64,000 nucleotides of DNA from Thermoanaerobaculia bacterium (GCA_963664405.1 OY761158.1:4832001-4896000); one strand, 5' to 3'; numbered from the stretch's first letter, positions 9,361-33,967 are shown. Notes: generated by a model from the letters alone, not told the origin. Numbers and translations are program-made.

Positions 9361-9483
9361 CCCATGGGAACTCAGTCCTTCTCTACCTCCGGCCCTATCA
9401 CCCGGTAACCTCGGTTGCGAGGCGCTCTGCCAATTTCAATTCCCTTCTCACGAGGCGCCCGGCCTCCTAGCGCGGCGGGAACT

Positions 9484-13469: not shown

Positions 13470-13481
13470 CCGCCGATAACA

Positions 13482-17468: not shown

Positions 17469-17518
17469 TGCTTCCATTATAGGGAGCGGCCGCGGGGACG
17501 GGCTCGTAGCCAGCTGGG

Positions 17519-17753
17519 CTGAAGTTTCTCGACTTTTTCTCCCAGAACACTTGACAAGGTTTTTCGGGCCTTTCGGTCCCCACCGTGATGTCGCTTCTAG
17601 AACCGGTCGCAGGGCCACCAGCTTCTCCTGTGCGGGGCGTCCGAAGACGGGCAGAAGATTTGCCCTTTGTCGGCCCGCGTTCGGCCTCGCATGGGAGCTT
17701 CAAGTCCCTCGAAAAACAGGGGTTATGATGGTTCGATCGACCTGGAGAGAACG
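17519..17753 (+). promoter_or_regulatory. Leader of DUF222-HNH element with TTGACA box (17551-17556)
   Basis: Perfect -35 hexamer; the first ~55 bp recur at 32107-32160 in the deleted copy. Confidence 0.5.
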
Positions 17754-19061
17754 ATGAGACAAGAACCCACCGCCCTATCGCCCAGCCCCGTTCCGCCGCT
17801 CCCCGAGTGCCCTGTCGAAGACCTCGGCGAACAGATCGCCGAGCTGTCAGCCCAGATTCAGGCGGCAAACTACTGCCTTCTGGTACTGATCCGTCAATTC
17901 GACGACCGAGGCGGTTGGAACGTGGGCTTCGCCTCCTGCGCCCACTGGCTCAACTGGCGCACAGGCCTGGCCCTCGGGGCGTCGCGCGAGAAGGTTCGCG
18001 TGGCCCATGCGCTGGGCGAGCTGCCGCTTCTGAGCGAGTCGATGAGCCGAGGCGAGCTGTCGTACTCGAAGATTCGTGCACTGACCCGGGTCGCAACGCC
18101 GGAGAACGAAGAGGAGCTCCTCACCTTTGCGCGCTGCGGGAGTGCAGCCCATGTCGAGAGGCTGGTGCGAGCGTGGCGGCGGGTCGATCGGATCGCGGAC
18201 CAGGAGGAAGAGCAGCGACGACACGCGAGCCGATCGGTCGATGCCTTCTTCGACGACGACGGCATGCTTGTGATCAGAGGCCGTCTCGATGCCGAGGCGG
18301 GCGCGGTGGTGATGCGGGCGTTGGAGGCGGCTTCGGAAGCTCTCTACCAATCGACGGAAGAGAAGGTCGAGATCCCAGTCGGTCAACGCCGGGCTGATGC
18401 CCTTCAACTCCTCGCTGAGAGCGCCCTCGCGCACGAGCTCGATCGCGGCACTTCTGGCGACCGCTATCAGGTGGTGGTGCACGTCGATGCCGAGACTCTG
18501 GCCGACGCCGACAGCTCGGGGATCTCGGTGCTCGAGGATGGGCAGCACGTTCCCGCGGGAACGTCGCAGCGCCTGGCCTGCGACGCCGGCAAGGTGGTGG
18601 TGCGCCACGCCAGAGACGGCACGGTGCTCGACGTGGGGCGCAAGACGCGCACTGTCTCACCCGCCATTCGCCGTGCCTTGAATACCAGAGACCAGATCTG
18701 CCGCTTTCCGGGGTGCCAGTCGAAGTTCTGCGAGGCCCATCACGTCAAACACTGGGCACAGGGGGGGGAAACTCGTCTCGATAACCTGGTTCTGCTGTGT
18801 CGGCGCCACCACCGAGCCGTTCATGAGGAGGGCTTTTCGATGAAGCTCGCGGAGGGCGAGGTCTCCTTCTACTGGCCGAATGGGCGGCCCATGCCACAGG
18901 CGCCGTCGGCTCCAACGTTGGCAGGTGAGCCTTTGGAGCTGCTCCTGCGCCTCCTTGAGCAACAAGGAATCAAGATCGATGCGGAGAGCGGGCTTCCGGA
19001 TTGGGATGGGGAGTCTTTCGACCTCGAGTGGGCGGTCGACGCTCTGCGATTGATCAATTGA
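17754..19061 (+). CDS. DUF222 domain / HNH endonuclease (REP13E12-like)
   Basis: SCAHWLNWRTG, GELSYSK.RA.TR, RLACDA, LDVGRKTR, RD..CRFPGC, HHVKHWAQGGET..DNLVLLCRRHHRAVH. Confidence 0.92.
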   Translation: MRQEPTALSPSPVPPLPECPVEDLGEQIAELSAQIQAANYCLLVLIRQFDDRGGWNVGFASCAHWLNWRTGLALGASREKVRVAHALGELPLLSESMSRGELSYSKIRALTRVATPENEEELLTFARCGSAAHVERLVRAWRRVDRIADQEEEQRRHASRSVDAFFDDDGMLVIRGRLDAEAGAVVMRALEAASEALYQSTEEKVEIPVGQRRADALQLLAESALAHELDRGTSGDRYQVVVHVDAETLADADSSGISVLEDGQHVPAGTSQRLACDAGKVVVRHARDGTVLDVGRKTRTVSPAIRRALNTRDQICRFPGCQSKFCEAHHVKHWAQGGETRLDNLVLLCRRHHRAVHEEGFSMKLAEGEVSFYWPNGRPMPQAPSAPTLAGEPLELLLRLLEQQGIKIDAESGLPDWDGESFDLEWAVDALRLIN

Positions 19062-19145
19062 GGCACGAGCTCTGACCTACCTAGCCGGGCACCTGAGAGG
19101 AGCGCGAGGAGGCCGCGGTATCGTCCTCTCTGATAGGGTTTTGGC

Positions 19146-19346
19146 ATGACTAGGGTAGCCGAGTTGGAGCGGGCCGTTCGTGACCTGTCTCCCGAGGATC
19201 TCCGCCGATTCCGCGAGTGGTTTGTCGAGTTCGATGCCGAGCTCTGGGAACGTCAGCTTGAGCGCGACATCGACGCCGGCCGACTCGATAGTCTTTCCGA
19301 AGAGGCCCGGACCGAGCACCGTGAGGGGCGCACCCGGCCTCTGTGA
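19146..19346 (+). CDS. Small antitoxin-like protein (normally paired with a ParE/RelE-like toxin)
   Basis: WFVEFDAELWERQLERDIDAGRLD; followed by GTGA-coupled toxin start VNHFATE cut after ~8 codons. Confidence 0.75.
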   Translation: MTRVAELERAVRDLSPEDLRRFREWFVEFDAELWERQLERDIDAGRLDSLSEEARTEHREGRTRPL

Positions 19347-19380
19347 ATCATTTCGCAACCGAGCGGCTCATCTCCTAGCC

Positions 19381-19565
19381 TGGCCCGGGCGGCGCATGCC
19401 ACAGGCGCCTTCGACGCCAATGTTGGCGGGTGAGCCCCTGGAGCTGCTGCTGCGCCACCTCGAGCGGCAGGGGATCAAAGTCGACGATTCGAGTGGGCTT
19501 CCTGATTGGGATGGGAGTCTTTCGATCTCGAGTGGGCGGTCGATTCTCTGCGGTTGATCAACTGA
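19381..19565 (+). repeat. DUF222-HNH 3'-end copy 2
   Basis: MPQAPSTPMLAGEPLELLLRHLERQGIKVDDSSGLPDWDG...; ends gcggttgatcaactga. Confidence 0.92.
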
Positions 19566-19637
19566 CACTCGGCGGGCGCTCCGAGCGCATCGCCGCACGC
19601 GAGGGGAGCGCACCCGTAAACCGGTCGGAGGGATGTT

Positions 19638-19976
19638 TCATCGGCGGGCGCTCTCGGTCTCCGCCATCACCCAGTCCCGGTAGTCGTCGTTCACGTACGC
19701 GACCTCTACGCCAAGGATGGCTGGCACCTCGTACGGGTGCAGCGCCTTGACCTGCTCGATCACCCTCTCGTATAGGGCGGCGCGAGTTCTCAGGCGCAGC
19801 GGAACCTCTGTTTTCCGCTCGATCTGACCCTCCCACCGATAGGTGCTGCGGATCGCCGGGTAGATGTTCGAGGCCGCGACGAGCCGGTCGCCGAGGAGGT
19901 GCTCCGAAATAGCCTCGGCAACTGCCTCGTCCGGGCAGTTGATCCATATGTCGACGATGTCCATGGCTTCAGTCAT
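19638..19976 (-). CDS. cutA: Divalent-cation tolerance protein CutA
   Basis: LVAASNI...RSTYRWEG.IE, LHPYEVPAI. Confidence 0.9.
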   Translation of the reverse strand: MTEAMDIVDIWINCPDEAVAEAISEHLLGDRLVAASNIYPAIRSTYRWEGQIERKTEVPLRLRTRAALYERVIEQVKALHPYEVPAILGVEVAYVNDDYRDWVMAETESARR

Positions 19977-19999
19977 GCCCGAACACCGAGGAGGACTCC

Positions 20000-21097
20000 T
20001 TATGAACCGGGTTTGCCCACGATTTTGCGCACCATCTCTCGGATGACGGGACTTTGCTCTCGAATATTCAGTACGGAGGTTGCCGTCATGATCACCCCTG
20101 CCACTTCGAATTCAAAGTCTATCCAGGGAGTCGTTCCCCCGGCCCCGGGATCGGCGACTTCGAGAATGTTGCCTTCGCTGTCCACGCGAAGAATCCACGA
20201 GCCAAGTCCATATCCGAGAAAGCTGGCCCCGCGCCCGGCGGCGTAGGCGACTTCCGCCCCATGGGTCTGATCGACTCGCAGCATTTCATGCACCGAGTCG
20301 GAGGAGAGCACGCGTTTGCCTTCGAACACTCCGTCGTTCGCCAACATGCGCATGAACCTGATGTAGTCGTTCAGCGTAGTTGCGATGCCGCCGGCAATGT
20401 GAGGGTTGAGGGTTGGCCGCGAATCGAAGTGAGAGCCGATCAGGCTTCCCCGCTCCGTTCCATTCTCGACGTAGACGAGGTTCCCATGGTAGGTGTCGGC
20501 CAGACCGAGCGGGCCGGTGAGCTTCTCGCCGAAAATCTGATGCCAGGGCTTCCCAGTGGCCATCTCGGCTACCCGAGCCGCAGTCTGGAAGTGCCATCCG
20601 CCGTATTGGAACTTCTCTCCGGGAGGATGCAAAAGATCCACATCCGCCACTCTTTCGACGCACTGCTTCAGGGTGATGGACGTGTCTTTGAGCCAATTCC
20701 GCGGAATCGAATTGGAGATCCCGGTCATGCACGACAAACCATGGCGGATGGTCATTGACGCTTTGTCGCCGGTAAACAGCGGAATGTAGTCCGAAACTTT
20801 GGCATCGAGCGAAAAGACGCCGTCGTCCACCAGAGCCAAGACCGGCGTGACCGCGAACCACTTGGAAGCCGAGGCGATGGGCAATACGGTGTCGGCTTGG
20901 AACGCGCCGAAAACTTCCTTGTAAATGACGCGGTCGTTTTTGATCAGCGCCATGGCCGCGCCTTTCATAGCCCTCTCATCCACCATCCGCTGGACGAATT
21001 CAGTCACCGAAGAGAAGTCGTAGCGTGCGTCCGCAGGATGGGCCGCGCTGGAAACGGCAAGAAGCAAGACCAGAAGACCCGGGATGACTCTCGACAC
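20000..21097 (-). CDS. Secreted serine hydrolase, beta-lactamase/class C family
   Basis: Signal peptide, IASASK (SxxK), PGEKFQY, YGLGSW. Confidence 0.85.
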   Translation of the reverse strand: MSRVIPGLLVLLLAVSSAAHPADARYDFSSVTEFVQRMVDERAMKGAAMALIKNDRVIYKEVFGAFQADTVLPIASASKWFAVTPVLALVDDGVFSLDAKVSDYIPLFTGDKASMTIRHGLSCMTGISNSIPRNWLKDTSITLKQCVERVADVDLLHPPGEKFQYGGWHFQTAARVAEMATGKPWHQIFGEKLTGPLGLADTYHGNLVYVENGTERGSLIGSHFDSRPTLNPHIAGGIATTLNDYIRFMRMLANDGVFEGKRVLSSDSVHEMLRVDQTHGAEVAYAAGRGASFLGYGLGSWILRVDSEGNILEVADPGAGGTTPWIDFEFEVAGVIMTATSVLNIREQSPVIREMVRKIVGKPGS

Positions 21098-21155
21098 GAG
21101 CTGCCTCCTTTCTGAGGTTGCGACGGTTCAGTACAGGCTATCAATCTACCCGGCT

Positions 21156-21310
21156 TCGTCCTCTCTGATAGGTTTTTGGAGCCGAGTTGGAGCGGGCTGT
21201 TCGTGATCTGTCACCCGAGGATCTCCGCCGATTTCGCGAGTGGTTTGTCGAGTTCGACTCCGAGCTCTGGGAACGGCAGCTCGAGCGCGACATTGACGCC
21301 GGCCGGCTCG
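21156..21310 (+). pseudogene. Diverged copy of antitoxin 19121-19286 lacking start codon
   Basis: Same upstream tcgtcctctctgatagg and LERAVRDLSPEDLRRFREWFVEFD; ATG region deleted, 3' truncated. Confidence 0.9.
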
Positions 21311-21439
21311 CTCGAAGACCAGCTGCCGATTGTCGTCGGGGAGAGCCGGTCGCGGCCGATCGTCCTGAGATGATGCCGCCTGGGAGAGGACGGCGATCAA
21401 CAGGGTCGTCGATGCGAAATGTCTGATCGTGCTTTCCAT
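21311..21439 (-). pseudogene. 5' stub of a secreted protein
   Basis: MESTIRHFASTTLLIAVLSQAASSQDD signal-peptide-like start that runs into the antitoxin copy. Confidence 0.45.
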
Positions 21440-21505
21440 GAGATCTCGATCCTACCGGCTAGAAGGTGAGCACTACCCGGGTGTAGCGACCGGCTCTGGT
21501 ATCTA

Positions 21506-21525
21506 CTGTACGTGATAATGTACAG
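21506..21525 (+). promoter_or_regulatory. Putative TA operator (inverted repeat)
   Basis: CTGTAC-gtgataat-GTACAG immediately upstream of phd. Confidence 0.55.
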
Positions 21526-21530
21526 AAGCC

Positions 21531-21812
21531 ATGGCGACCGAAACTCTTTCGCTGACTGAGATGAGACCGCGCTTGTCAGAGCTCCTGGCCCGCGCCCACG
21601 AGCAATTCGACCGATTCGTGATCACCCGTAGGGGTCGAGCAGAGGCCGTTTTGCTCTCGGCCGAGGAGTTCGATGGACTCCTGGAGACCCTCGAGATCCT
21701 GTCGGACGAGAGCCTGGTCGGAAGACTCGTCGAGGCGGACGAAGAGATGTCCACAAGCGGTGGCTACTCCCTCGAGGAGGTACGGCAGGACCTGGCCAGT
21801 GGCCGAGGTTAG
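21531..21812 (+). CDS. Phd/YefM antitoxin
   Basis: LSELL, FVITRRGRAEAVLLSAEEFDGLLETLEIL. Confidence 0.9.
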   Translation: MATETLSLTEMRPRLSELLARAHEQFDRFVITRRGRAEAVLLSAEEFDGLLETLEILSDESLVGRLVEADEEMSTSGGYSLEEVRQDLASGRG

Positions 21813-22059
21813 GCTGTCGAGCAACGCGCGGAAGAGCTACTTCAGGCTCGCTCGGAGCGACCGACGACTCTTCAAGAGGGTCGACCGTGCTCTCGAGCGT
21901 ATCGGAGAGGAACCGGAGGCTGGGAAGCCACTGGCCGGCCCTCTTGCAGGTCACCGATCGTTTCGGGTGGGCTCGTTGCGCATCGTGTACCGCATCGAAG
22001 AACAACGGTTGCTCGTACTGGTGCTCGACATCGCCGAGCGAGGAGGCGTGTACCGTTGA
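21799..22059 (+). CDS. RelE/ParE toxin
   Basis: GKPLAGPLAGHRSFRVGSLRIVYRI; overlaps the antitoxin. Confidence 0.88.
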   Translation: MAEVRLSSNARKSYFRLARSDRRLFKRVDRALERIGEEPEAGKPLAGPLAGHRSFRVGSLRIVYRIEEQRLLVLVLDIAERGGVYR

Positions 22060-22124
22060 GCCATTGGTATCGGAGGGCGTGAGCAGTGAGCGGAGCAAGT
22101 GACAGTAGGACTGAGGGAGAGGCT

Positions 22125-23588
22125 ATGAAACGGATCTGGTTCCTTTTGGGCGTTCTGAGTGTGGCTACGGCGGCTGGTGCCGATGGGGGCAAGGACTGCC
22201 GCAACCTATACCGGATGACGGACCTCAGTTATGCGGTCGAGCCGGGCCGCGTGATTGGCGCCGAGGGCACAACACCCGCGCATTGCAGAGTGCGGGCTGT
22301 TGTAAACCGTGCGATCCAAGTCGAGGTGCGGATGCCAATCGAGGGTTGGAACGGCCGTTTCATGTTCTCGACGGTGGGCGGCTATGCCGGGACGATTGGC
22401 GATACCCGGAGCCTGTTGGGGCGCGGCTTCGCCATGGCGTCCACGGATACAGGGCACACGACTGTCGACGCGGAATTCATGCTGCAACCGGAGGCGCTAC
22501 TCGACTATGCCTATCGCGGCGTCCATCTGGCGACGGCGTTTGCGAAGACCACGATCAAAACGTTCTACGGCGGCGAGATCGAATACTCCTACTTGAAGGG
22601 ATGTTCGAATGGCGGGCGCGCGGCGCTGCTCGAAGCCATTCGCTTCCCCGACGACTACGACGGGATCATCGCCGGCGCGCCGGCGTTCCGCTTCCAGGAG
22701 TTCATGCCTTGGATGATCGAGGTCGCACGCCGGCAGCAACGTCATCCTCTCGATGAGGATGCGCTCCAGGTGCTCGACGACGCATCCAGGGCCGCTTGCG
22801 ACTCGCTTGATGGTGTGACGGACGGCGTGATCAACGATCCGCGTCACTGCAGCGAGGAGGTCTACGACATCGACGAGCTTGCGTGCCGCGTGGGTCAGAC
22901 CGAGGGGTGCCTGAGCAAAGGCCAGATCGAGACGGCGCGGTTCATCTATCAAGACCAGATCGATAGCGCGGGCGACATCGTCTCTCCCGGTGTACTGCCC
23001 GGCGCGGAGGGCGCGGGAGATTGGGCATTCTGGATGCTGCCCAACGCTCAGCGACAGACCTCGGTGATCGACGCGCTGAGCGGCGGGCTCAAAAACTATC
23101 TGAAGGATCCCGAGTTCGATCTCGACGGTTTCGACACCGCTGACGATCGAGCGCTTCTCGATGACATGGCGTCCTACATGGATGTGCAAAGTGCGGACCT
23201 CACTGAGTTTCGAGAACACGGCGGCAAGTTATTGATGTATCAAGGTTGGAACGACTGGCCGCTCCGGCCGCAGCGCGCGATCGAGTATCTTGCGGAGGCG
23301 CAGGCAGTACACGGTGGGCCGCGCGAAACGGCGGAGTTTTTCCGCCTCTTTATGGTGCCGGGGATAGTACATTGCTCGCGCGGTCCCGGGGCCTGGGTAA
23401 CCGACTACGTCGATCCGCTCGTCAAGTGGCGCGAGGAAGGCCGCGTGCCGGAAAGTATTGTCGCGTCGCGTCCGGCGGGAGATGACGGGGGCGATAGCGG
23501 ATTCACGCGGCCGCTCTGCACATATCCGAAGCTTGCGCAATACAAGGGAGGCGACCTCGCGCATGCAGATAGTTACGAGTGTAATTAG
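22125..23588 (+). CDS. Tannase/feruloyl esterase family hydrolase (secreted)
   Basis: GCSNGGR, DYDGIIAGAP, GGKLLMYQGWND, RLFMVPG.HC, RPLC.YP. Confidence 0.92.
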   Translation: MKRIWFLLGVLSVATAAGADGGKDCRNLYRMTDLSYAVEPGRVIGAEGTTPAHCRVRAVVNRAIQVEVRMPIEGWNGRFMFSTVGGYAGTIGDTRSLLGRGFAMASTDTGHTTVDAEFMLQPEALLDYAYRGVHLATAFAKTTIKTFYGGEIEYSYLKGCSNGGRAALLEAIRFPDDYDGIIAGAPAFRFQEFMPWMIEVARRQQRHPLDEDALQVLDDASRAACDSLDGVTDGVINDPRHCSEEVYDIDELACRVGQTEGCLSKGQIETARFIYQDQIDSAGDIVSPGVLPGAEGAGDWAFWMLPNAQRQTSVIDALSGGLKNYLKDPEFDLDGFDTADDRALLDDMASYMDVQSADLTEFREHGGKLLMYQGWNDWPLRPQRAIEYLAEAQAVHGGPRETAEFFRLFMVPGIVHCSRGPGAWVTDYVDPLVKWREEGRVPESIVASRPAGDDGGDSGFTRPLCTYPKLAQYKGGDLAHADSYECN

Positions 23589-23593
23589 ACGAA

Positions 23594-23772
23594 ATGGCGA
23601 CACGAGACCTTAGCGAACGCTCTAGAATCCCGCAGTGTTTTCTGTGGTCACTGCTCGCCCTTGGGCTGTGTGACGAGGCCGATGCTGCGAGCGGTTTCTC
23701 CTGTACCGAGGTCCTTGGCTTCTCACAGTCGGTGGAGTGGTTCGGTGGGTTCTCTCTGGCCCGGCAGCCGCC
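23594..23772 (+). pseudogene. 5' stub of a secreted protein truncated at GGTGCCACCC repeat
   Basis: Signal-like N-term and FSCTEVLGFSQSVEWF, then repeat sequence. Confidence 0.5.
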
Positions 23773-23878
23773 GGCTGCCAAAGGTGCCACCCGTTTGTTG
23801 ACCGGTCTTCGCTGAGTCCGCACCTGTACCTCTGTTACACATTTTGGACGGCCCTTGCTCGCGAACCGCGTAGACCGG
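23772..23878 (+). repeat. GGTGCCACCC repeat, subfamily A
   Basis: ggtgccacccgtttgttgaccggtcttc...ttacacatt...gctcgcgaac aligns with 32742-32828. Confidence 0.8.
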
Positions 23879-23971
23879 AGTGCAAAGAGCACCAGTGTGC
23901 GCCCTCAGCACGGCTTGCCGAGTACCTGCGGAGACCAGCCGGCAGCCAGAGTCGGGTAAGGTACGGCGAAC

Positions 23972-25099
23972 ATGGACGACAGCGACCTCAAACCACTGAG
24001 CCGGGTCGCTACCGACAAGACCGGGCAAGAGGTTGTGGTCCGTACGATCTTGCTCCGCGACCTCACTCAAGAGGACCTGGAGCGTATGGTGGAGCTCCTG
24101 CAGGTGGTCTTCGACGGCTGGCCGGCCTTCGACCCGGGGGTAACGGCGGTTGACCACCTTCGCTGGAAGATCGAGACCCCCTTCGCCGGCGTCGCCGCAA
24201 TCGCGGCGGAGATCGAGGGGGAGCTGGTCGGCTCGGTCACGGTCTTTACACTGCGGGCGAAAGTCGGCGATCGCGAGTTCCCGCGAACGCGCAGCCTCGA
24301 CTACGCCGTTCACCCCGACTTCCGCGGCAGGGGTATTGCCAGTGCCATCAGCCCGGTGATCCAAGACGCAGTGCCGTCACCAAGGCTGCGAATTTCGGAG
24401 ACGCACAGCCAAGAGCTTCTTCATCTCTTGCACAAGAGCGGGGCTCAGGTTGTCGCCAATCCGGTGCGACCTCTCCGCTGTCAGCTGGGCATGCCCGACA
24501 CCAAGACGAGGGAGACAACGAGCGGGCTTCTGATGGCGCTGGGAACCGCAGCGATGGGGCTTGGCAATAGGCTTCGGTACCGCCGCCGCCATTCTTCGAC
24601 TCCCAGACCCAAGACCCTGACCCGATTCGACGAGCGCTTCGATGTCTTCTGGGAGAGCGTTCGAGAGCAATTCGACGTCATCCTGGTCCGCACTCATGAC
24701 TACCTCAACTGGCGTTACTGCGACCCGCGAGGGGGCGAATCCATCGTCCGTGTTGTCGAGAACCAGGACCGTGTGCTGGGCTACGCAGTGCTCAAGATGC
24801 AGGGTGCCGAGGCCGCGTTCGCCGACGTTCTCGTCCTACCAGAACGGCTCGACGTCGTTGACGCGCTGATCGCCGACGGGTTGGAGATACTGCGCGAAGA
24901 CGGCGTGAAGAGCGTGATCTGCTGGCTACCCGAGCGTCATCCTTACCGTCACACCCTGCTCGGGCGCAGTTTCGTACAAGCCCGCCAAAGAGTCCTTCTG
25001 ACGACTCGTCCGGGCTACCTTCCCGACGACGCGGATGCGATATTGAACCGACCAGAGCTACGCTTCCACTATTCGCTCGGGGACTCGGACTGGGTCTAG
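23972..25099 (+). CDS. GNAT-fold (tandem) acetyltransferase-like protein
   Basis: AVHPDFRGRG, YLNWRYCDPR, GDSDWV; paralogue of 55993-57102. Confidence 0.8.
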   Translation: MDDSDLKPLSRVATDKTGQEVVVRTILLRDLTQEDLERMVELLQVVFDGWPAFDPGVTAVDHLRWKIETPFAGVAAIAAEIEGELVGSVTVFTLRAKVGDREFPRTRSLDYAVHPDFRGRGIASAISPVIQDAVPSPRLRISETHSQELLHLLHKSGAQVVANPVRPLRCQLGMPDTKTRETTSGLLMALGTAAMGLGNRLRYRRRHSSTPRPKTLTRFDERFDVFWESVREQFDVILVRTHDYLNWRYCDPRGGESIVRVVENQDRVLGYAVLKMQGAEAAFADVLVLPERLDVVDALIADGLEILREDGVKSVICWLPERHPYRHTLLGRSFVQARQRVLLTTRPGYLPDDADAILNRPELRFHYSLGDSDWV

Positions 25100-25103
25100 G
25101 CCG

Positions 25104-25195
25104 AGTCGCTCGAACGCCCTTACCGAGGTGAGTTTGTGAGCATCATCAGACGCATTACCGTCCAGGACCTACAGCTACGAGCTCGATGACTTCGG
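25104..25195 (+). repeat. Diverged copy of upstream region and first ~20 codons of the enolase-family gene (38311-38404)
   Basis: cgaacgccctta...ttgtgagca(t/c)catcag(a/g)cgcattaccgtccagg...ctacgagctcga(t/c)gacttcgg. Confidence 0.9.
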
Positions 25196-25245
25196 TTCGC
25201 CCATGGGAACCTACTCACTCGTCTGTCTCCTTGTCGTTTTCGCTT

Positions 25246-26412
25246 CTACTCGGGCCGACTGTTTCTCGGAATAAAGCCAAAGATGATGTCCGTGTTCGCC
25301 AGATAGCCGTCTTTACTCTGAATGAGCAGTTCTTGCTGTATCAACCAGTTCACGTCTCGGGTGACCGTCTTATCGGTCTTGTTTCGATACGCCTCTTCGA
25401 TTCGGGGACTTACCGTCCTAATCCTGGCCTTCCTCACCGCCTCGCCCAGCCATGAGAGATCGAGCAGTAGGTCCCGCTTCCGTGTGTCAGATGGAGAGAT
25501 CTTGTCCTCGAAGACTTCGTGCACGTAGTCCCGCCAAGCCAATCCGATCTGGTAGGCCTGCACCTCTCGCAACTGCCCTTGGAGTTGGTCGACGAGGCCC
25601 TCGACCGCGTACAGCAAAAACGGGACAACGTCCCCTCCTGACTCGCTGGCACGGGCAAGCTCCCGCAGGTATCGCTCTCTCGTCAGGTTGTAGTGATTGC
25701 TCAGAAGGTGGGCTGCTGGGGTAGGTGCGCCCGCACCGATGAGGATGAAGAACTCGATCAGTCGAGCCGTGCGCCCGTTGCCATCGCCGAAGGGGTGAAT
25801 CCAGGCTATGTAGAGGTGGGCTAAGACGGCGCTGAGAATCCCAGACACCAGATCCTGAGGCTGTGCCAGCTCGTTCAGCCAGCTGCAAAGCTTCTCTACC
25901 AGATACGGGCAGTCTTGCCACGGCGCTCCGCGATAGCCCGAAACGACAACCGAGTGCTTGCAGTACTTTCCGGGCTCTACTTCTTCGCTTAGCTCCAGAT
26001 CGCGAAGGACCTGGGCGTTGAACTCCCGGACGGCGTCGGGAGAAAGCGGCGATCGCGACTGGCCCACCAGGGCTACTAGTTCCTTGGCCAGCTCTGTACA
26101 GGCATACGCAATATTCTCCACCTCCTGCTTCAAGTAGGCCTGGGACGGAGGGAGGTCCAGCTCATTGGACAGGATCTTCTTGACCTGCTCCTCGTCGAGC
26201 GTATTGCCTTCGATGGCAGTGGAACCGCCAACGCCCTTCGCCAAATAAAGGAGGTGAAGCTGCTGAGCTTCAGACGGCTTCAGAGGAATCTGAGCTATCG
26301 CCTCACACTTGGCCTTCGCTTCCCCGAGAAGCATCCACAACTTTCCGGGGAGGCTCCCAACATTCAGATGGAAGCTGATCCAGGGGTGTGTTCTCGCGTA
26401 CTCGCGGTCAAT
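25246..26412 (-). CDS. Fic family protein
   Basis: HPFGDGNGRTAR, STAIEGNTL; frame extends upstream of TTG 26340 through YARTHPWISF to ATT at 26412 (start uncertain). Confidence 0.88.
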   Translation of the reverse strand: MDREYARTHPWISFHLNVGSLPGKLWMLLGEAKAKCEAIAQIPLKPSEAQQLHLLYLAKGVGGSTAIEGNTLDEEQVKKILSNELDLPPSQAYLKQEVENIAYACTELAKELVALVGQSRSPLSPDAVREFNAQVLRDLELSEEVEPGKYCKHSVVVSGYRGAPWQDCPYLVEKLCSWLNELAQPQDLVSGILSAVLAHLYIAWIHPFGDGNGRTARLIEFFILIGAGAPTPAAHLLSNHYNLTRERYLRELARASESGGDVVPFLLYAVEGLVDQLQGQLREVQAYQIGLAWRDYVHEVFEDKISPSDTRKRDLLLDLSWLGEAVRKARIRTVSPRIEEAYRNKTDKTVTRDVNWLIQQELLIQSKDGYLANTDIIFGFIPRNSRPE

Positions 26413-26644
26413 ATTTGCTGATAAATCTGACGTGTTATGTCCCTCCTAAGTGACTCCATTGGGAATAGATAGTATACACGGTAACCATCTCGATGTCCCC
26501 AAACCTGTTAGAAATCTGCGAAGGAATCTTGGGCCATCGTGGGCCATCGCGGACTCACCCCTTCGTTACCGGATCGCCCACGTTGAATTTGCTCACCCGG
26601 CCGGTTCTGCCATCGCAGGTCAAGAGGTACACGGTACGACCCCG

Positions 26645-27124
26645 GCAATCGGCGAACAGACCTACAAGGGAGTCTTCGCCCTCACGATCGTCGCCTCCAT
26701 CGTCATGATGGTGTTCGGGTGGCGAGCGATTACACCGACCGCCGTCTACAGAGCATCCGCCTGGGGGTACGCCGCCGCCGAGCTGCTGGTGTTCGTCGCG
26801 CTGGTTCTCTTCGTGGCCTCAGGACTCCCCAGCAATCTCAAGCGAGCGGTTCGTCATCCTCAGTTGAGCGGCCTCGTTGTGTGGAGCGGCGCTCATCTGC
26901 TCGCGAACGGAGATCGGCGCTCCTTGGTCCTCTTTGGGGGCCTCGGGTTGTGGGCCATCCTGGCGATGATGTTCACCAACCGCCGCGACGGTGCGTGGGA
27001 GAAACCGGAGCCCGTGCCGATGGCGAGCGAGCTCAAGCCTCTTCTGATAGCGGCCGGCTCCTGGGCGGCCCTCTTCTTCGTACACCCCTACTTCGCGGGC
27101 GTTTCCCTTTCCCTCGCCTGGTGA
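26645..27124 (+). pseudogene. nnrU: NnrU family membrane protein, 5'-truncated
   Basis: GEQTYKG, RHPQL.G...WSGAHLLANGD; first TM helix missing and upstream sequence unrelated. Confidence 0.75.
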
Positions 27125-27161
27125 GCCTTCGGCTGGCAACGGGCACCTGCGACTACGACCG

Positions 27162-27314
27162 TGGCCGCCGATGCCACAGGCGCCTTCAGCGCCAATGTTG
27201 GCGGGTGAGCATCTCGAGCTGCTCCTGCGCCTTCTCGAGCGGCAGGGGATCAAGGTCGATGATTCGAGCGGGCCTCCGGATTGGGATGGGGAGTCGTTCG
27301 ATCTCGAGTGGGCG
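27162..27314 (+). repeat. DUF222-HNH 3'-end copy 3
   Basis: MPQAPSAPMLAGEHLELLLRLLERQGIKVDDSSGPPDWDGESFDLEWA, truncated just before the terminal palindrome. Confidence 0.92.
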
Positions 27315-27320
27315 AGGTAT

Positions 27321-27343
27321 TCACCCTCGATTGCGTCTCTATC
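27321..27343 (+). repeat. Internal block of repeat subfamily B
   Basis: tcaccctcgattgcgtctctatc versus tcagcctcgattgcgtcttcatc (minus strand ~15907-15929). Confidence 0.5.
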
Positions 27344-27389
27344 TACTGGAGATGGACAGTCAAGGGGTGTGCAAGATGAGTCGTACTAC

Positions 27390-27413
27390 GACCATGGTCT
27401 CAAGACCATGGTA
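27390..27413 (+). promoter_or_regulatory. Tandem palindromic TA operator
   Basis: GACCATGGTC-tcaa-GACCATGGTA directly upstream of phd. Confidence 0.65.
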
Positions 27414-27423
27414 CGTTAGATGG

Positions 27424-27681
27424 ATGCAGACGATTGCGATCTCCAAGTTCAAGGCCCGGTGCCTGGCGATTCTCGAGGAGGTTCGCCGCACGGGGGAACC
27501 GGTGAGAGTCACGCGCTTCGGCAGGCCGGTGGCGGAGATCGTCCCACCCGTGCCGTCCGAGGACGAGGGGGAGTGGATGGGTCGCTGGCGTGCTGAGATG
27601 CGGATCGTGGGAGACGTCGTCTCGCCGGTGATCCCACCTGAGACCTGGGAGGCGTTGGGCGAGAAGCCTTCCGATCTATGA
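27424..27681 (+). CDS. Phd/YefM antitoxin
   Basis: MQTIAISKFKARCLAILEEVRRTGEPVRVTRFGRPVAEIVP. Confidence 0.9.
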   Translation: MQTIAISKFKARCLAILEEVRRTGEPVRVTRFGRPVAEIVPPVPSEDEGEWMGRWRAEMRIVGDVVSPVIPPETWEALGEKPSDL

Positions 27682-28076
27682 GACTGCTTCTCGATACCCA
27701 CGTCTGGATCTGGAGTCTGGTCGAGCCGGAGCAGCTGCGTGCGGAGACGCGATCCGCGCTCTCCGACCCCGCGTCTGAGCTCTACCTGTCTCCCATCTCG
27801 GTATGGGAGCTCTTGCTGCTCGTGGAGAGGGGGCGAATCGAGCTAGCCCAGGATCTAGAGCCGGAGCAGTGGGTGGCAAGCACGTTGGCGACGACTCCGT
27901 TGAGAGAGGCGCCGCTCACATGGAAGATCGCGAGTCGCAGCCGCTCACTCGACCTTGCCACCGACGATCCGGCCGATCGATTCCTCGCCGCGACGGCTGC
28001 CGAACGCAAGCTGACTCTGGTTACAGCCGATCGGCAGCTGCTCAGCTGCGCCGAGATCTCGACCCTGCCGGCTTGA
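27678..28076 (+). CDS. vapC: VapC PIN-domain toxin
   Basis: MRLLLDTHVWIW, SPISVWE, DPADRFLAATA, LVTAD. Confidence 0.92.
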   Translation: MRLLLDTHVWIWSLVEPEQLRAETRSALSDPASELYLSPISVWELLLLVERGRIELAQDLEPEQWVASTLATTPLREAPLTWKIASRSRSLDLATDDPADRFLAATAAERKLTLVTADRQLLSCAEISTLPA

Positions 28077-28179
28077 GCACCGCTGCGAGCGAGTCGGCGG
28101 GCCTGCCGCACGCGCGGCGTTGTTGACCGTGATCTATGATGCATGCTGACCAGTGGGGCTCAGACCGGCAGGGACTGTG

Positions 28180-29781
28180 ATGAAGAAGGGGATCGTATCG
28201 ACGCCGCAGCCCGAAGCAACTGAGGCCGGGATCGAGGCTTTGCGGCGTGGCGGCAATGCGGTCGACGCGGCCATCGTAACGGCGCTCGTGCAGGGTGTTG
28301 TCGATCCCCAGATGTGCGGCATCGCCGGCTTCGGCAGCATGCAGATCTATCTCCCCAAAGCCGGCGTCCACACCTTCATCGACTTCCACGGCAAGACTCC
28401 CGCCGCGGCCACGCCGGAGATGTGGGAGGACCTGATCGTCGGCGAGGCGCGGGACGGCTTCGGCTTCTTCTTGAAGGATCACGTCAACGACGTCGGCTAT
28501 CAGTCGATCACCGTGCCGGGTAGTCTCAAGGCCTACTTCGAGGCGCAGACCGAGCACGGCCGCATGGACTGGGCAGACGTGGTGGCACCGGCTATCGCTC
28601 ATGCCGAGGCGGGCGTGATGATCCGCCCTCACATGCGGTTCTTCTGGACACACGACGACCGCAGCGGGCGCGTGCTGACAGAGGAGCGCCTGCGCTTCAC
28701 CGAAGCAGGGCGGCGCATCTACTTCCACCCCGACGGCCGCCTCAAGGGATTGGGCGACACATTGAAGAATCCCGAAATGGCGGCGGCTTTGCGGCGCATC
28801 GCCAAGGACGGAGCGGACGTGTTCTATCGCGGTGAGATCTCGGACGCCATCTCCGCCGACATGAAGGCCCACGGCGGGCTGCTCTCGGGCGAGGATCTCG
28901 CGACCTACGAGACGCGACGCGTCGACCCACTGTGGGGCGAGTTCCGCGGCTATCGGGTCGCCAGCAACCGGCCGCCCGGCGGTGGCGTAATGCTGATCGA
29001 GATGTTGCAGATCCTCGAGAACTTCGATCTCGAAGGCATGGGGCACAACAGCGTCGACTACGTCCGCACGCTGTGCGAGGCGATGAAGCGGGCGACCTCG
29101 GACAAGGACGAGCACGTCGGCGACCCCGACTTTGTCGACGTGCCGCTCGACCGGCTCACCGACAAGGCCTATGCTGCCGAGCTCGCGGCCAGCATCAAGG
29201 CGGGCGACGTGGCTTCGGTGGAGCGCTACTCGGCCGACGCGTCGCACACCACCCACATCGCCATCGTCGATGCGGAGGGAAACGCGGTGTCGATGACCCA
29301 CTCCCTGGGCATGCCTTCCGGGGTGATCACGGAGGGGCTGGGGTTCATGTACAACGGCTGCATGGGGGTGTTCGATCCCCGCCCCGGTCGCGCCGGGTCG
29401 ATCGCGCCGGGCAAGGCGCGGTTCAGCTCCATCTGCCCCACGATGGTCTTCGAGGGCGACGATCCGGTGCTGGTGATTGGCGCTCCCGGCGGCACCCAGA
29501 TCGCCATGGGCGTCTTGCAGGCGACACTGAACGCACTCGAGTTCGACATGCCGATCACCGACGCGATCATGGCACCGCGATTCTCCGCCACCAGCAATGC
29601 CATCGACGTCTCGAACCGGATCCCGCGATACGTGACGCGCGCGTTGGAGGCGCAGGGGTACGACATCGTGCGGAGCTATCTGAGCTACGGTTTCGCTGCC
29701 GTGCACGGGCTCAGACGGCAGAACGGAGAGTGGGCAGGGGCGGCGGACCCCGGCCACGACGGCATGGCGTTGGCGGAGTGA
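28180..29781 (+). CDS. ggt: Gamma-glutamyltransferase family protein
   Basis: GGNAVDAA, VPG, TTH nucleophile motif, GAPGG. Confidence 0.92.
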   Translation: MKKGIVSTPQPEATEAGIEALRRGGNAVDAAIVTALVQGVVDPQMCGIAGFGSMQIYLPKAGVHTFIDFHGKTPAAATPEMWEDLIVGEARDGFGFFLKDHVNDVGYQSITVPGSLKAYFEAQTEHGRMDWADVVAPAIAHAEAGVMIRPHMRFFWTHDDRSGRVLTEERLRFTEAGRRIYFHPDGRLKGLGDTLKNPEMAAALRRIAKDGADVFYRGEISDAISADMKAHGGLLSGEDLATYETRRVDPLWGEFRGYRVASNRPPGGGVMLIEMLQILENFDLEGMGHNSVDYVRTLCEAMKRATSDKDEHVGDPDFVDVPLDRLTDKAYAAELAASIKAGDVASVERYSADASHTTHIAIVDAEGNAVSMTHSLGMPSGVITEGLGFMYNGCMGVFDPRPGRAGSIAPGKARFSSICPTMVFEGDDPVLVIGAPGGTQIAMGVLQATLNALEFDMPITDAIMAPRFSATSNAIDVSNRIPRYVTRALEAQGYDIVRSYLSYGFAAVHGLRRQNGEWAGAADPGHDGMALAE

Positions 29782-29820
29782 TCATCGGCGGCTGAGAGCC
29801 CTTCCCGGATCAACGCGACG

Positions 29821-30535
29821 TCAGTCTTGCGAGGCGAGTCTCTTCACCAGGCGATAGAGGAACTCGTGCCCCTCGTAGAAAGACTCGACCAGCAGGCGCT
29901 CGTCCTGACCGTGGATGCGGATGTCGTTGCGATCGACGAAGAGGCCTGACACGCCGTAGGTGGGGATTCCGGCGTTGCGCATCTTGGCACCGTCGGTGGC
30001 GCCGGTCGTCATGGTCGGGAGAACGACGACGCCAGGCCACATCTCCTCGGTGGTGATCTCGATGGCGCCGAGGATCTCGTCGGTCAGCGGGGAAGGATCG
30101 CTGGGTCTTCCGCCACCCTGAAAGGTGATCTCGATCTCGGGGTTGTCGACCGTGGAGATCAGCGCCTCGAGCACGTCGTGCGGGTCGGTGCCGGGCATCA
30201 TGCGGCTGTTGACCACGGCCTGAGCGGTCTGCGGCAGGGCGTTGGGAGCGTGTCCTCCTTCGAGGATCGTGGGTACGACCGTGGTTCGCAACTGTGCGTT
30301 CAGCACCGGATCCGCCGCCAGACGCTCCAACGCCTCGGGGTCGGGCGGTTCTTCGAGGATCGCCCGGATGTCCTTACCCTTCTGCCCGGGTGTGATCTCG
30401 GCGAGACGCTCGAGTCCCAGGCGCATGACGGGATTCAGCTCCACCGGGAACGAGTACTCCCGGATCGCAAGAAGTGCTGTGGCGAGGTCGTAGATGGCGT
30501 TGTCCCGGCGTGGTAGCGAGGAGTGCCCACCGAGC
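29821..30535 (-). pseudogene. M20/M25/M40 peptidase C-terminal fragment
   Basis: GGHSS.P..DNAIY, GGHAPNALPQ, GATDG, RIHGQDER; N-terminal metal ligands absent. Confidence 0.8.
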
Positions 30536-30565
30536 AGGACAAGCGCACCAGCCGTCAACCGAGTG

Positions 30566-30589
30566 TCGGGGTCCAGGGTCTTTCGTCAT
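30566..30589 (-). repeat. 5' stub of the HD hydrolase gene (copy of 17445-17468)
   Basis: MTKDPGPR, 22/24 nt identical, ATG overlaps the amidase stop. Confidence 0.75.
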
Positions 30590-32037
30590 CACGACCTCCC
30601 GGCGATGAGACTCGGCACCAGCGTGTGCCATTCGGTCGCTTGCTCGTAGGTATTGCCGATCCGGCACAAGGTTGGCTCAGTGAGGCGATCGCCGAGAAGT
30701 TGAAGTGTGAGCGGCACTCCGTCGGGGTTGGTGCCGCAGGGGAGGGACACGGTGGGGGTACCTGCGAAATCGGACGGTGCGGTGAACTGGAGCTGAATGT
30801 GCTCCATCAACGGGCCGAAGCCGTCCATGCCGCCGTATTGCACCGCCTCGTCGGCGGGGAATGGCACGCCTCCACTGGGCCCCGCCACCGCATCGACCCC
30901 GGCAAGGGCGGAACGGAAGCGCTCGTTGAAGGCGGCCCGGCGCTCGCTCGCTGTCGCGTACGCCGCGTCGGTCACCGACGCTCCAACGGCGAGGAACTCA
31001 CGGAAGTACTCACCATACTCGTCCGCCTGCGAAGGGTAGTGCTCGCCGTGGGCGGCGTGCGCCTCGCGGGAGCAGATGGTGAACCAGGCGTCGACGAGAT
31101 CGGGCGGGAAGGCGGGCATCTCGACCTCGACCACCTCGGCACCCTCCTGCTCGAGGACGCCCAGCGCCTCCTCGATCGCGCTCACCAGGCCCGGATCGAC
31201 GTCGGTGCTCGCCCAGGCGCGGTCGTAGCCGATGCGTGTCCCCCCGACACCGGAGTCGATGTGCTCGAGCAGATCGAAGACAGGGCCCGGCAACGACGTC
31301 GGATCCTCGGCGTCGGGGCCCGCAATCGCCTGCAGCACGGCGGCCGCGTCGCCCACGCGCCGCGCCAGGGGACCGACGTGGTCGAGGCTCTCGGCAAGCG
31401 GCAGGACGCCATGTCGGCTGACGAGCCCATAGGTGGGCTTGAGGCCGACCACGCCGTTCGCCATGGCCGGATAGCGGATGGAGCCACCCGTATCGGTTCC
31501 GAGGGCGGCGAAGCAGAGGCCCGCCGCGGTCGCGACGCCTGCGCCGCTCGACGACACTCCTGCCCACAGGCGATCGTCCCAGGGGTTGCGGGGAACCGGA
31601 AAGCTGCGGTGGTAGCCGCCCATGGCACCCTCGGTCGTGGTCAGCTTGCCCAGAAGAACCGCCCCGGCCTGGGCCAGCTTCGCGACCACGGTAGCGTCGT
31701 GGTCCGGCACGAAGCTCCTCAGAAAGGCGTGACCGCCCATGGTGCGTGTGCCACGCGTGTAGCAGAGGTCCTTGACCGCGACGGGCATGCCGTGCAGTGG
31801 CCCGTGCCAGTCACCCGCGGCGATCTCCTCCTCCGCCCGGCGGGCCGCGGCCCGGGCCTCGTCCGCCATCACCGTGGCGTAGCTGTGCAGCGACGCGTCG
31901 ACGGTGGAGAGGCGATCCAGCATGGTCTCCGTCAAGGAGACCGGCGAGAGCTCGCCCGACCTCAGGCGCTCGGCGGTGTCGAGGAGGCTCGCAAAGTGAA
32001 GTGGCGTCTCTCGCGATTCAGGACCTCTCTCGTTCAT
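30589..32037 (-). CDS. Amidase signature family protein
   Basis: GPLHGMPVAVKDL, GVSSSG, GTDTGGSIRYP. Confidence 0.93.
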   Translation of the reverse strand: MNERGPESRETPLHFASLLDTAERLRSGELSPVSLTETMLDRLSTVDASLHSYATVMADEARAAARRAEEEIAAGDWHGPLHGMPVAVKDLCYTRGTRTMGGHAFLRSFVPDHDATVVAKLAQAGAVLLGKLTTTEGAMGGYHRSFPVPRNPWDDRLWAGVSSSGAGVATAAGLCFAALGTDTGGSIRYPAMANGVVGLKPTYGLVSRHGVLPLAESLDHVGPLARRVGDAAAVLQAIAGPDAEDPTSLPGPVFDLLEHIDSGVGGTRIGYDRAWASTDVDPGLVSAIEEALGVLEQEGAEVVEVEMPAFPPDLVDAWFTICSREAHAAHGEHYPSQADEYGEYFREFLAVGASVTDAAYATASERRAAFNERFRSALAGVDAVAGPSGGVPFPADEAVQYGGMDGFGPLMEHIQLQFTAPSDFAGTPTVSLPCGTNPDGVPLTLQLLGDRLTEPTLCRIGNTYEQATEWHTLVPSLIAGRS

Positions 32038-32106
32038 GCCTTCTCCTTGTCGGGTTCACTTGGCAATACCAGCGTGCTTTTCTGATCATCTCATCTGCGC
32101 CATTGG

Positions 32107-32714
32107 TGAAGATTTCTCGACTTTCTTCACCGCAACCCTTGACAGGTTTTTTCGACCCCTTCTCTACGAATCGAGCGAAGAGAAAGTGGAGATTCTAGCC
32201 GCCCAACGACGGCCTGACGGCTTGCAGCTCATGGCCGAAAGCGCCCTCGCGCACGAGCTCGACCGGGGCAGTTCGGGTGACCGGTATCAAGTTGTGATGC
32301 ACGTTGACGAGAAGGTCCTGGCCGACTCCGAGGCTGGTGGCGTTTCGGTCCTCGAGGATGGGCAGCACGTTCCCGCGGGAACGTCTCAGCGACTCGCCTG
32401 CGATGCCGGAAAGGTGGTCGTGCGCCATGCCCGCGATGGCACGGTTCTCGACGTCGGGCGCAGAACCCGTACGACTTCACACTGGGCCCAGGCGGAGAAA
32501 CCAGCCTCGACAACCTCGCTCTGCTGTGTCGATGCCACCATCGATGGCGCAGGCGCCTCGGCCGCCGAAGTGGGCGGGGGAGCCGCTCGAGCTCCTCTTG
32601 CACCAGCTCGAGGAACAGGGGATCAAGATCGACGATGACGGCGGCCTGCCCGATTGGGATGGAGAGTCTCTCGATCTCGCGTGGGCGGTCGATGCCCTGC
32701 GATTGATCAATTGA
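32107..32714 (+). pseudogene. Internally deleted copy of the DUF222-HNH element (leader + middle + 3' end)
   Basis: Blocks match 17520-17575, 18340-18650, 18748-18815 and 18890-19061; CRFPGC/HH region deleted; ends gcgattgatcaattga. Confidence 0.9.
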
Positions 32715-32725
32715 AGCCAGATGGT

Positions 32726-32840
32726 CCTTCGGCCGCCACGGGTGCCACCCGTTTATTGGCCTGGTCTTCTCGGAGTCGCTACCTGCCTCTACCTTACAAA
32801 CATTCAGGTGGCACCTGGCTCGCGAACAGAGGTAGCCCAG
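32726..32840 (+). repeat. GGTGCCACCC repeat, subfamily A
   Basis: ccttcggccgccacgggtgccacccgtttattggcctggtcttc... Confidence 0.8.
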
Positions 32841-32911
32841 TCAGAGCGAAGACAAGCTCTGGGGCGGTGAGACGGTCCAAGTCGACGCGTCTGTGCCAAG
32901 TTGGAACCCCG

Positions 32912-33154
32912 TCAGTGGCAATGGCTGTGCGCCTGCGACCAGATCTGACCGGGCGGGCAGATCGAGGCTTCCGCGTCTTCGCTCAGGCGGAACGACGAAG
33001 CGAGCGCCAGCGCCAGCACCACCACCACTGCCGCCACAATGAGCCATTGAACGTTGGACAGCCCTCCACTCTTCCGCACGCAACATGCTTTGAACTTCTT
33101 GCCACTACCGCAGGGGCAGGGCTCGTTGCGCCCGACTTTGTTTGTTGTGGCCAT
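32912..33154 (-). CDS. SEC-C motif small membrane protein
   Basis: [22 protein letters not shown] helix, [13 protein letters not shown]. Confidence 0.85.
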
Positions 33155-33365
33155 CGGCTCGAGGTCTCTGGATCTATCGCGAGAGCGCCGAGATCATATC
33201 GCCCGAGCAGCAGCGGTGGCTGATCGCAAGACCCATCCTTAACGCTATCCCACGTTTCGCTCCGCGGGAAGGAGTGTCGGTAGCCGAGCGCAACCGGGAG
33301 ACCTTGGCCTCGCCGGGCAACGCGCCATCCCGGCCGCTGCCGCTCGCGAAACGCGAGCCGGGGGC

Positions 33366-33478
33366 GAGCACCGTGAGGGGCGCACCGGCCTCTGTGAATC
33401 ACTTCGCAACCGAGCGCTTCGCCCTCCTCAAAGAAAACCTTTGGCGTCCTTCGCTGCACCTCAGGAGGGTTGGCCAAC
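33366..33478 (+). pseudogene. Antitoxin 3' end plus internally deleted ParE-like toxin (copy of 19312-19363)
   Basis: gagcaccgtgaggggcgcacc...ctctgtgaatca(c)ttcgcaaccgagc then FALLKEN..PSLHLRRVG. Confidence 0.8.
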
Positions 33479-33601
33479 CCTACACGCGGTGATGCTATTG
33501 TCTACTGAGATTACGTAGAAGCGATTCGCGCAGCTTGATTCGGGCGGGCCTCCGGCACTGCTGCCGGTAGTAGGGGCTAACCACAATGGAGGGCGATCGT
33601 C

Positions 33602-33922: not shown

Positions 33923-33967
33923 CCGCGCACCGTTCGCCTCGACGGCGGAGAGACCGCGTCCTCGACG

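Follow-up and report, generated by a model that had tools for sequence, protein, structure and literature searches.

DUF222-HNH genes, the type to which the REP13E12 repeats of mycobacteria belong, are common repeats in soil, marine and actinobacterial genomes, and to our knowledge neither a function nor a mode of movement has been demonstrated for them. A mycobacterial prophage leaves a C-terminal piece of the repeat, roughly 34 codons long, on one of its sides, and free-standing homing endonucleases, as in the 'intronless homing' of T-even phages, spread a nuclease gene and its flanks by repair of a break in a rival allele. We analyzed 64,000 nucleotides (nt) of a Thermoanaerobaculia bacterium genome (GCA_963664405.1 OY761158.1:4832001-4896000, in our numbering G000:C1:4832001-4896000), hereafter the window, in which one intact DUF222-HNH gene, copy A, is followed by three relics of itself, T1, T2 and T3, with unrelated genes between them. 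The original prediction was of a new, integron-like system without an integrase, in which the 3' end of the gene acts as an entry point used again and again, each use displacing the old tail downstream. The anatomy of a displacement array at a selfish nuclease gene, with a precise break point, is supported in this genome; the likeness to integrons did not hold up.

Displacement of this general kind has a published precedent in the sequential replacement of type VI secretion system (T6SS) effectors by homology-facilitated illegitimate recombination and in rhs C-terminal displacement, as the relevant passages of PMC5361080 present them. In rhs loci and in the T6SS clusters of Vibrio cholerae, as set out there, the 5' part of the gene is constant, DNA anchored on it swaps the 3' part, and old 3' ends move downstream, co-oriented, along with the genes behind them; the mechanism proposed combines one-sided homology with an illegitimate joint (PMC5361080). 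The locus studied here shares with rhs, CdiA and T6SS arrays the presence of co-oriented 3' fragments from other lineages behind one intact gene. In those arrays, however, each displaced end is a polymorphic toxin domain accompanied by its cognate immunity gene, and immunity selection explains its retention, whereas here the tails are homologous to one another (75-90%), have no Pfam domain and form a linker and two short helices in a structural model. There is no partner logic here, and the cargo consists of toxin-antitoxin pairs and unrelated enzymes on both strands. Homology-facilitated illegitimate recombination is known in transformable bacteria from experiments with short inserts (PMC3240628). 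The locus resembles its products in having one homologous anchor, one homology-free joint and foreign DNA beside the anchor. It differs from them in the size of its blocks, 0.5 to 7.8 kb, and in a joint that comes back at a single position.

The REP13E12 family has the same architecture (PF02720 plus PF01844) and is likewise multi-copy and dispersed, with partial copies; one repeat copy houses the phiRv1 element, as stated in the relevant section of PMC9317374. No tail arrays were described in the excerpts of the REP13E12 literature that were searched. The family extends far beyond mycobacteria, and the nearest relatives of the present gene, at 51-65% amino acid (aa) identity, are in metagenome-assembled genomes labelled Acidobacteriota, Rokubacteria/Methylomirabilota and Gemmatimonadota, with a few Actinobacteria (loci L011-L170), unlike the mycobacterial repeats.

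Copy A encodes DUF222 (PF02720, E = 1.2e-25) followed by HNH (PF01844, E = 9.5e-9), both passing the cut-off, in one protein, as in the DUF222-HNH family, which we defined by a single protein of about 430-500 aa. BLAST against the whole genome, which is assembled as one 6.78-Mb contig of 62.6% GC, found three intact copies and five fragments in all, dispersed over the genome. Intact copies B (2447039-2448865, + strand) and C (5049983-5048443, - strand) are 85-87% identical to copy A in nucleotide and 91-92% in amino acid sequence. Two of the five fragments are outside the window: a 5' fragment, F, at 3054507-3055064 and a 91-nt tail, O, at 784505-784595. The latter is isolated and joined directly to a transposase-like open reading frame (ORF) fragment, presumably IS6-like, with IS110 and ISL3 transposases nearby (784420-784595, locus L173). 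Around fragment F (3054507-3061712, locus L174), a DDE transposase cuts the 5' fragment of the gene, and genes nearby include that of a group II intron reverse transcriptase and a large serine recombinase gene (744-aa frame) present in five identical copies. The parts of the element and its relics in the window are as follows.

17522-17753, + strand: conserved leader of the DUF222-HNH unit, 232 nt; the homology of A, B, C and T3 begins at 17522
17754-19061, + strand: copy A, intact DUF222-HNH gene, 435 aa (Pfam DUF222 + HNH); a B-like/C-like mosaic
18883-18891, no strand: putative preferred break or entry point, codons ~377-380, where T1 and T2 start and a T3 deletion ends
19146-19346, + strand: ORF X, a small ORF of 66 aa, also present behind copy B at 95% nt identity
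19347-19385, + strand: X partner gene, about 12 codons, followed by junction J1 with T1; 19366-19385 is assignable to neither side
19386-19565, + strand: T1, displaced tail, 83% identical to the copy A tail, with a 1-nt frameshift, ending at the stop codon
27163-27314, + strand: T2, displaced tail, 84% identical to the copy A tail, its last 27 nt replaced
32107-32717, + strand: T3, remnant of a whole element that retains leader, middle, part of the HNH region and tail, interrupted by three internal deletions

All three relics are on the + strand within 14 kb downstream of copy A, and they account for three of the five fragments in the 6.78-Mb genome. By our own arithmetic, which assumes uniform placement, the probability is ~4e-7 that, of five fragments, three would lie at most 15 kb downstream of one of the three intact copies and share its orientation. 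A repeat search and BLAST reproduced the intact gene and the three diverged relics at, or within a few bases of, the positions first proposed, and we regard the observation as confirmed to be real and non-random.

A trivial origin of the repeats would be the joining of mixed strains during assembly. At 150-300 nt, the repeats are places where short-read contigs break, but the genome is a single contig, and the relics are 75-90% alike, not near-identical. Contigs from two other sequencing runs (X3 and X5, from two studies; the same strain, and possibly the source sample of the genome) match 19515-25804, 25777-27263, 27244-32380 and 32362-35400 with 0-1 differences. They span junction J2 (the start of T2), the interval from T2 to T3 and that from T3 to the downstream sequence without differences; 18981-19515, which contains J1, was unbridged among the contigs listed from other runs. 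We consider an artefact very improbable. A further run (X1, seawater, share 0.12) gave fragmented, short contigs of a relative, at roughly 90-96% identity, which, among the matches listed, showed joints 19350>33417 and 26644>32803; run X8 added nothing further for the locus.

We examined where the homology of each relic to copy A begins and ends. Clear homology of T1 begins at 19386/7, corresponding to 18882/3 of copy A, and that of T2 at 27162/3, corresponding to 18883. In T3, the last internal deletion removed the equivalent of 18816-18890, which is 75 nt, in frame and flanked by CCGA/CGATG microhomology. Three rearrangement end points thus lie inside 8 nt of a 1.54-kb element. At the other end, all tail homologies stop at the stop codon, apart from T2, which lacks the last 27 nt. 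Residue ~377 is at the start of a disordered linker in an AlphaFold model of the copy A protein (mean pLDDT, the predicted local distance difference test score, of 72; 35-sequence alignment), after the HNH domain and a beta-hairpin and before two short low-confidence helices. The opposite sides of the junctions are dissimilar. To the left of J1, homology to X and its partner reaches 19365, leaving 20 nt over, and the partner is cut after about 12 codons; to the left of J2, the nnrU stop codon is 38 nt away. No sequence common to the left sides of J1 and J2 was found, and the ends of the cargo blocks are arbitrarily placed.

Site-specific crossover typically leaves identical boundaries, and another possibility is that the 3' part of the gene served as an attB site for tandem accretion of phiRv1-like elements whose recombinase genes were lost later. 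The use of a serine recombinase by phiRv1, inside a REP13E12 repeat, as the cited part of PMC9317374 reports, is consistent with such a scheme, as are 12 Resolvase-family matches in the genome, among which are the five identical large serine recombinases, one of them 4.5 kb from fragment F. However, the window yielded neither a recombinase gene nor a remnant of one: it contains 0 of the 25 Phage_integrase (PF00589) and 0 of the 12 Resolvase matches of the genome, as the original prediction had it, and the scan of 83 of its ORFs turned up nothing of the kind beyond an IS21-type transposase pair. On its left, J1 cuts into a small gene instead of abutting an element end, and no sequence shared with J2 was found there. 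Accretion of this kind appears quite unlikely.

The comparison with sedentary integrons was similarly unfavourable. A co-oriented repeat punctuating an array that holds toxin-antitoxin pairs is a shared feature, but here there is no IntI or other tyrosine recombinase, the repeats are coding tails without single-strand structure, and the unit ends are arbitrary. The four tails folded no better than shuffled sequences (z -0.14 to -0.97; general folding, not a dedicated attC model), no other repeat family was found to mark the block ends, and no identical core is present at each repeat, the tails having only short exact runs in common. The cargo is multi-gene and on both strands, not made of mostly single-gene, promoterless, co-oriented cassettes, and has no common cassette boundaries. 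By these defining features, the array does not qualify as an integron. The idea of a new system of that type is further weakened by a neighbourhood, and other copies, amid transposases and broken genes, and by the rarity of such arrays and tail-only pieces elsewhere, described below.

We next compared the tails with one another. T1 and T2 are 90% identical over 141 aligned bases, with 1, 3 and 10 differences at codon positions 1, 2 and 3 (chi-square p about 0.008, our arithmetic). As the differences are mostly at third positions, the two tails diverged within working genes and are not duplicates of one dead relic. The nearest tail to both T1 and T2 is that of copy C (89% and 87%), that to the copy A tail is the one of B (90%), and the T3 tail is about 75% identical to all others and 94% identical in aa sequence to a database fragment (P0002). 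The tails have separate origins, and copy A itself is a mosaic. Of its informative sites, 29 are C-type and 17 B-type to the 5' side of about 18074, and 78 are B-type and 37 C-type to the 3' side (breakpoint near 18074 by maximum chi-square, permutation p 0.009). Identity between A and B rises from 74% in the leader and 85% in the first 320 nt of the gene to 90-95% from the tail through X.

We give an even chance to the explanation that the array is the record of repeated one-sided recombination at the DUF222-HNH gene and of subsequent decay. The sequence of steps, the one-sidedness of the exchange and the reason for the break are what we infer from the anatomy. DNA from another copy or lineage would pair with the resident gene through homology in the gene body, on the 5' side, and would bring its own tail plus whatever sat downstream of it. 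The far end of the incoming piece, at an arbitrary position, would be joined, with no homology involved, to a preferred point of the resident gene some 180 nt ahead of its stop codon; this would restore the gene with a new, donor tail and shift the resident tail downstream behind new cargo. The last such event would have placed a B-like tail, X and 12 partner codons ahead of the C-like T1, and an earlier event T1 plus the genes from cutA to nnrU ahead of T2. T3 would be a whole copy decayed by deletions, one of them ending at the common point. The common start of T1 and T2, the T3 deletion end 8 nt away, the B-like/C-like mosaic and the arbitrary block ends fit sequential displacement. The notion of a repeated entry point that pushes old tails downstream, which is also favoured by the coding-type divergence, is in this form retained for T1 and T2 and given up for T3. 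We saw no evidence for a dedicated, selected capture system.

Two minor possibilities concerning the tails were also considered. A role as a stand-alone gene was rejected: two short proteins (74 aa) match in a set of 5.8 billion proteins, and both start upstream of the tail. A crude scan for promoters that might serve the downstream toxin-antitoxin genes found no sigma-70-like sites in the tails.

Several observations weigh against recombination at the gene as the source of the array. Within the window, T3 carries its own leader, hence not every relic is a displaced tail; the coincidence of the junctions was noticed after the fact; and the interval 18883-18918 is mixed (7 B and 7 C sites), so that an exact match of the switch to the junction point cannot be claimed. 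The three intact copies could also have given rise to the mosaic by gene conversion with one another. In the remainder of the genome, copies B and C have no tails behind them. Outside it, 587 DUF222-HNH relatives were found in genome contigs, and relatives in genome and metagenome contigs were at most 65% identical in aa sequence. A distant set of loci, 80 from genomes and 80 from metagenomes (51-65% aa identity), was scanned, the query at each being the protein encoded there; the flanks covered amounted to ~0.77 Mb upstream and ~0.83 Mb downstream. No arrays were present in these 160 loci, in which only two short C-terminal bits were found downstream and one upstream. Thirty relatives from other genera that were compared were at most 75% identical in nucleotide sequence and without synteny, and no intermediate state or variable cargo was seen among them.

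Queries of 102 aa from the two ends of the protein were run against 56 genomes of the same family; the C-terminal one gave 121 matches and the N-terminal one 108 (summed by hand). Tail-only matches were essentially confined to the present genome. The loci fetched from this set had two nearby matches or one end matching only, a choice biased to partial copies. Among them, relic boundaries differ between genomes and most 3'-only copies are isolated (ten further loci keep a 3' part), and in one genome (G012) the 3' relic sits upstream of the intact copy, near a contig end, all of which again argues against the proposal. The set contained a few ambiguous parallels and one clear one, in another genus (G057:C1:4228001-4246000, locus L175). 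There the genes behind an intact copy are an MNT/HepT pair, a CAAX protease and a methyltransferase, after which comes a 3' relic (77%) that is frameshifted and has the same orientation. A DDE transposase comes after that relic, and a Fic gene is nearby. Two genomes (G050 and G048) have messy clusters bounded by insertion sequences (IS), and another (G005) has a 5' fragment. Retention of the 3' end is somewhat commoner than that of the 5' end in the family, and arrays of this type are rare. A boundary near aa 265-272 shared by six partial copies of one genus (g11), where the alignment starts at a conserved motif, was left unused; in part it coincides with the edge of a hypervariable segment, and open HNH and tail frames persist in three of the copies.

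In a plainer explanation, four whole elements, some with ORF X and its partner, inserted independently in a tolerant, island-like region and the 5' parts of all but one were lost by ordinary deletions. T3 consists of a leader piece (32107-32162, 77%), a middle piece (32161-32462, corresponding to 18341-18642, 80.5%), an HNH-region piece (32479-32544, corresponding to 18749-18815) and a tail piece (32544-32717, 79%). It has a leader and an HD stub of its own and represents a separate, complete copy that decayed by deletions, not a displaced tail. The stubs around the relics that had been reported at 21156, 30566 and 33366 were all recovered.

16881-17488, - strand: HD-domain gene upstream of copy A (Pfam HD_4, E 5e-27)
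21156-21310, + strand: X' relic, ORF X minus its start codon and C-terminus, 43 aa; matches 19121-19287 (98% aa, 86% nt)
30566-30591, - strand: HD stub, the first 26 nt (8 codons) of the HD gene, 24/26 nt identical, fused to a truncated M20 gene
33357-33489, + strand: relic of the X C-terminus plus the N-terminal half of the partner; 33357-33416 matches 19305-19365 at 92%

From their context, ORF X and its partner may be an antitoxin-toxin pair. Pfam, NCBIfam and Atlas clusters gave ORF X no name, its 26 homologues were uninformative (five 'hypothetical protein', the others unnamed), and its partner had no family match. Neither ORF X nor the HD gene was linked to DUF222-HNH in any of the 160 distant loci.

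Independent insertion and decay would account readily for T3, which is clearly what deletions with short microhomology have left of a whole element, and for the many broken genes of the window (a truncated DarT, an M20 gene, an ADP-ribosylglycohydrolase piece and the X and partner stubs). Partial copies are common in the family, and every other DUF222-HNH copy or fragment in the genome adjoins transposases and broken genes, as with fragment O, fused to a transposase-like ORF fragment, and fragment F, cut by an IS. The genome is rearrangement-prone, and plain decay therefore stays a serious rival. It does not, however, predict the co-orientation of the relics, the fact that the one intact copy is the most upstream, the coincidence of two boundaries to the base with a third 8 nt off, or the B-like 3' part of copy A beside the C-like T1; the common boundary would have to reflect a deletion-prone, GC-rich spot or chance. 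We hold decay alone to be doubtful, if well short of negligible.

The cause of the break at the preferred point, if sequential displacement took place, could be the encoded protein. A DUF222-HNH protein acting as a homing-type nuclease would cut rival copies at the start of the C-terminal tail, at ~18883, and repair from a donor would copy in the donor tail and the downstream DNA without any integrase. The anatomy expected is identical to that of one-sided recombination, and three coincident break points are the expectation for a site-specific cut. The HNH motif of copy A is intact by Pfam, and its Cys, His and Asn columns are invariant across 35 homologues. A fold search of the copy A model against the PDB gave no match at E <=0.001 and weak rows to the HNH domains of McrA and IscB. 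On the other side, the excerpts of the literature searched contained no biochemical evidence of DUF222-HNH activity, only mentions of repeats and of the location of phiRv1; boundaries lie elsewhere in other genomes; arrays are rare; and a cut within its own gene would also strike the resident intact copy. In comparison with known homing endonucleases, cleavage and target are only hypothetical for DUF222-HNH, and an array is not among the known outcomes of homing. We rate capture driven by the nuclease, with the homing-type activity it requires, as improbable. If it were true, a widespread repeat family without an assigned function would be an integrase-free entry point that builds gene islands, and the toxin-antitoxin pairs directly behind the DUF222-HNH gene would be accounted for.

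The locus offers a testable lead, namely a single position in the gene (18883 in copy A) on which three independent rearrangements converge. If the encoded nuclease makes the break, an activity would be defined for the family and an integrase-independent displacement route would be added to those of gene gain. If the position is only a fragile spot, the pattern of sequential displacement known at toxin loci would still widen to include a selfish nuclease gene whose cargo is ordinary.

The blocks between the relics contain 1-8 unrelated genes on both strands, with cutA, the hydrolase, fic, M20 and the amidase on the opposite strand to copy A. The gene list given earlier held against Pfam and NCBIfam, with the addition of the N-truncated M20 gene, which had been missed.

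19638-19976, - strand: cutA (Pfam)
20000-21097, - strand: beta-lactamase-family serine hydrolase (Pfam)
21531-21812 and 21799-22059, + strand: Phd-type antitoxin and RelE/ParE-type toxin (Pfam, NCBIfam)
22086-23588, + strand: tannase (Pfam)
23972-25099, + strand: GNAT (Pfam)
25246-26340, - strand: Fic (Pfam)
26450-27124, + strand: NnrU (Pfam)
27376-27681 and 27678-28076, + strand: Phd-type antitoxin and VapC/PIN toxin (Pfam, NCBIfam)
28153-29781, + strand: gamma-glutamyltranspeptidase (Pfam)
29821-30558, - strand: M20 peptidase, N-truncated (Pfam), fused to the HD stub
30589-32037, - strand: amidase (Pfam)

Both Phd-containing pairs are adjacent small genes with family matches, as is typical of type II toxin-antitoxin systems. 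The last 73 nt of the RelE/ParE-type toxin gene (21987-22059) recur at 95% identity as an orphan 3' end at 4799187-4799259 of the genome, 33 kb upstream of the window. G+C content at third codon positions is 0.82-0.87 in the T2-T3 block, which is 1.5-2.4 standard deviations above the genome mean of 0.727 +/- 0.059 (1041 long ORFs), and is typical of the genome in the T1-T2 block, a contrast that favours recombination in successive rounds. A 42-nt repeat (86%) at 30571-30612 and 43990-44031 comprises an ORF end (..SLIAGR), a ribosome-binding-like GGGAGG and the next start, MT(K/R)DPG; its two sites are behind the amidase and behind a GFA-domain ORF, and the HD gene has the start portion only.

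Upstream of the array is an IS21-type element (10733-13490) with istA/istB-like ORFs at 10733-12349 and 12346-13119, present in at least 7 genome copies that are 95-100% identical; a second, related IS family has 23 matches at 71% in the genome. Further upstream, 4715-10161 is a decayed defence-like cluster of a helicase gene, a macro-domain (DarG-like) gene, a truncated DarT that retains only the first 56 profile positions and a PARG-like gene, with a 120-nt internal repeat (7422-7541 and 9476-9595, 90%). Downstream of the array are further toxin-antitoxin-like genes, all on the - strand: a BrnT toxin (35921-36211), a PIN-domain ORF (36660-37283) and a helix-turn-helix ORF (37476-37799).

Rfam and tRNA scans of the window gave 0 matches each. 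A repeat of about 100 nt is present in three copies that are 73-75% alike, two in the window (32726-32832 and 23772-23866) and one at 4984304-4984420 (- strand) of the genome. In it, a GC hairpin precedes an inverted repeat that is long-range and perfect (GGTGCCACCCG ... CGGGTGGCACC), and it may be a small structured RNA, albeit one with no Rfam match in the window, or a miniature mobile element. Finally, an 80-aa ORF with an SEC-C metal-binding motif (32912-33154, - strand) lies in a bin (32764-33427) of very high contig depth contributed by many organisms.

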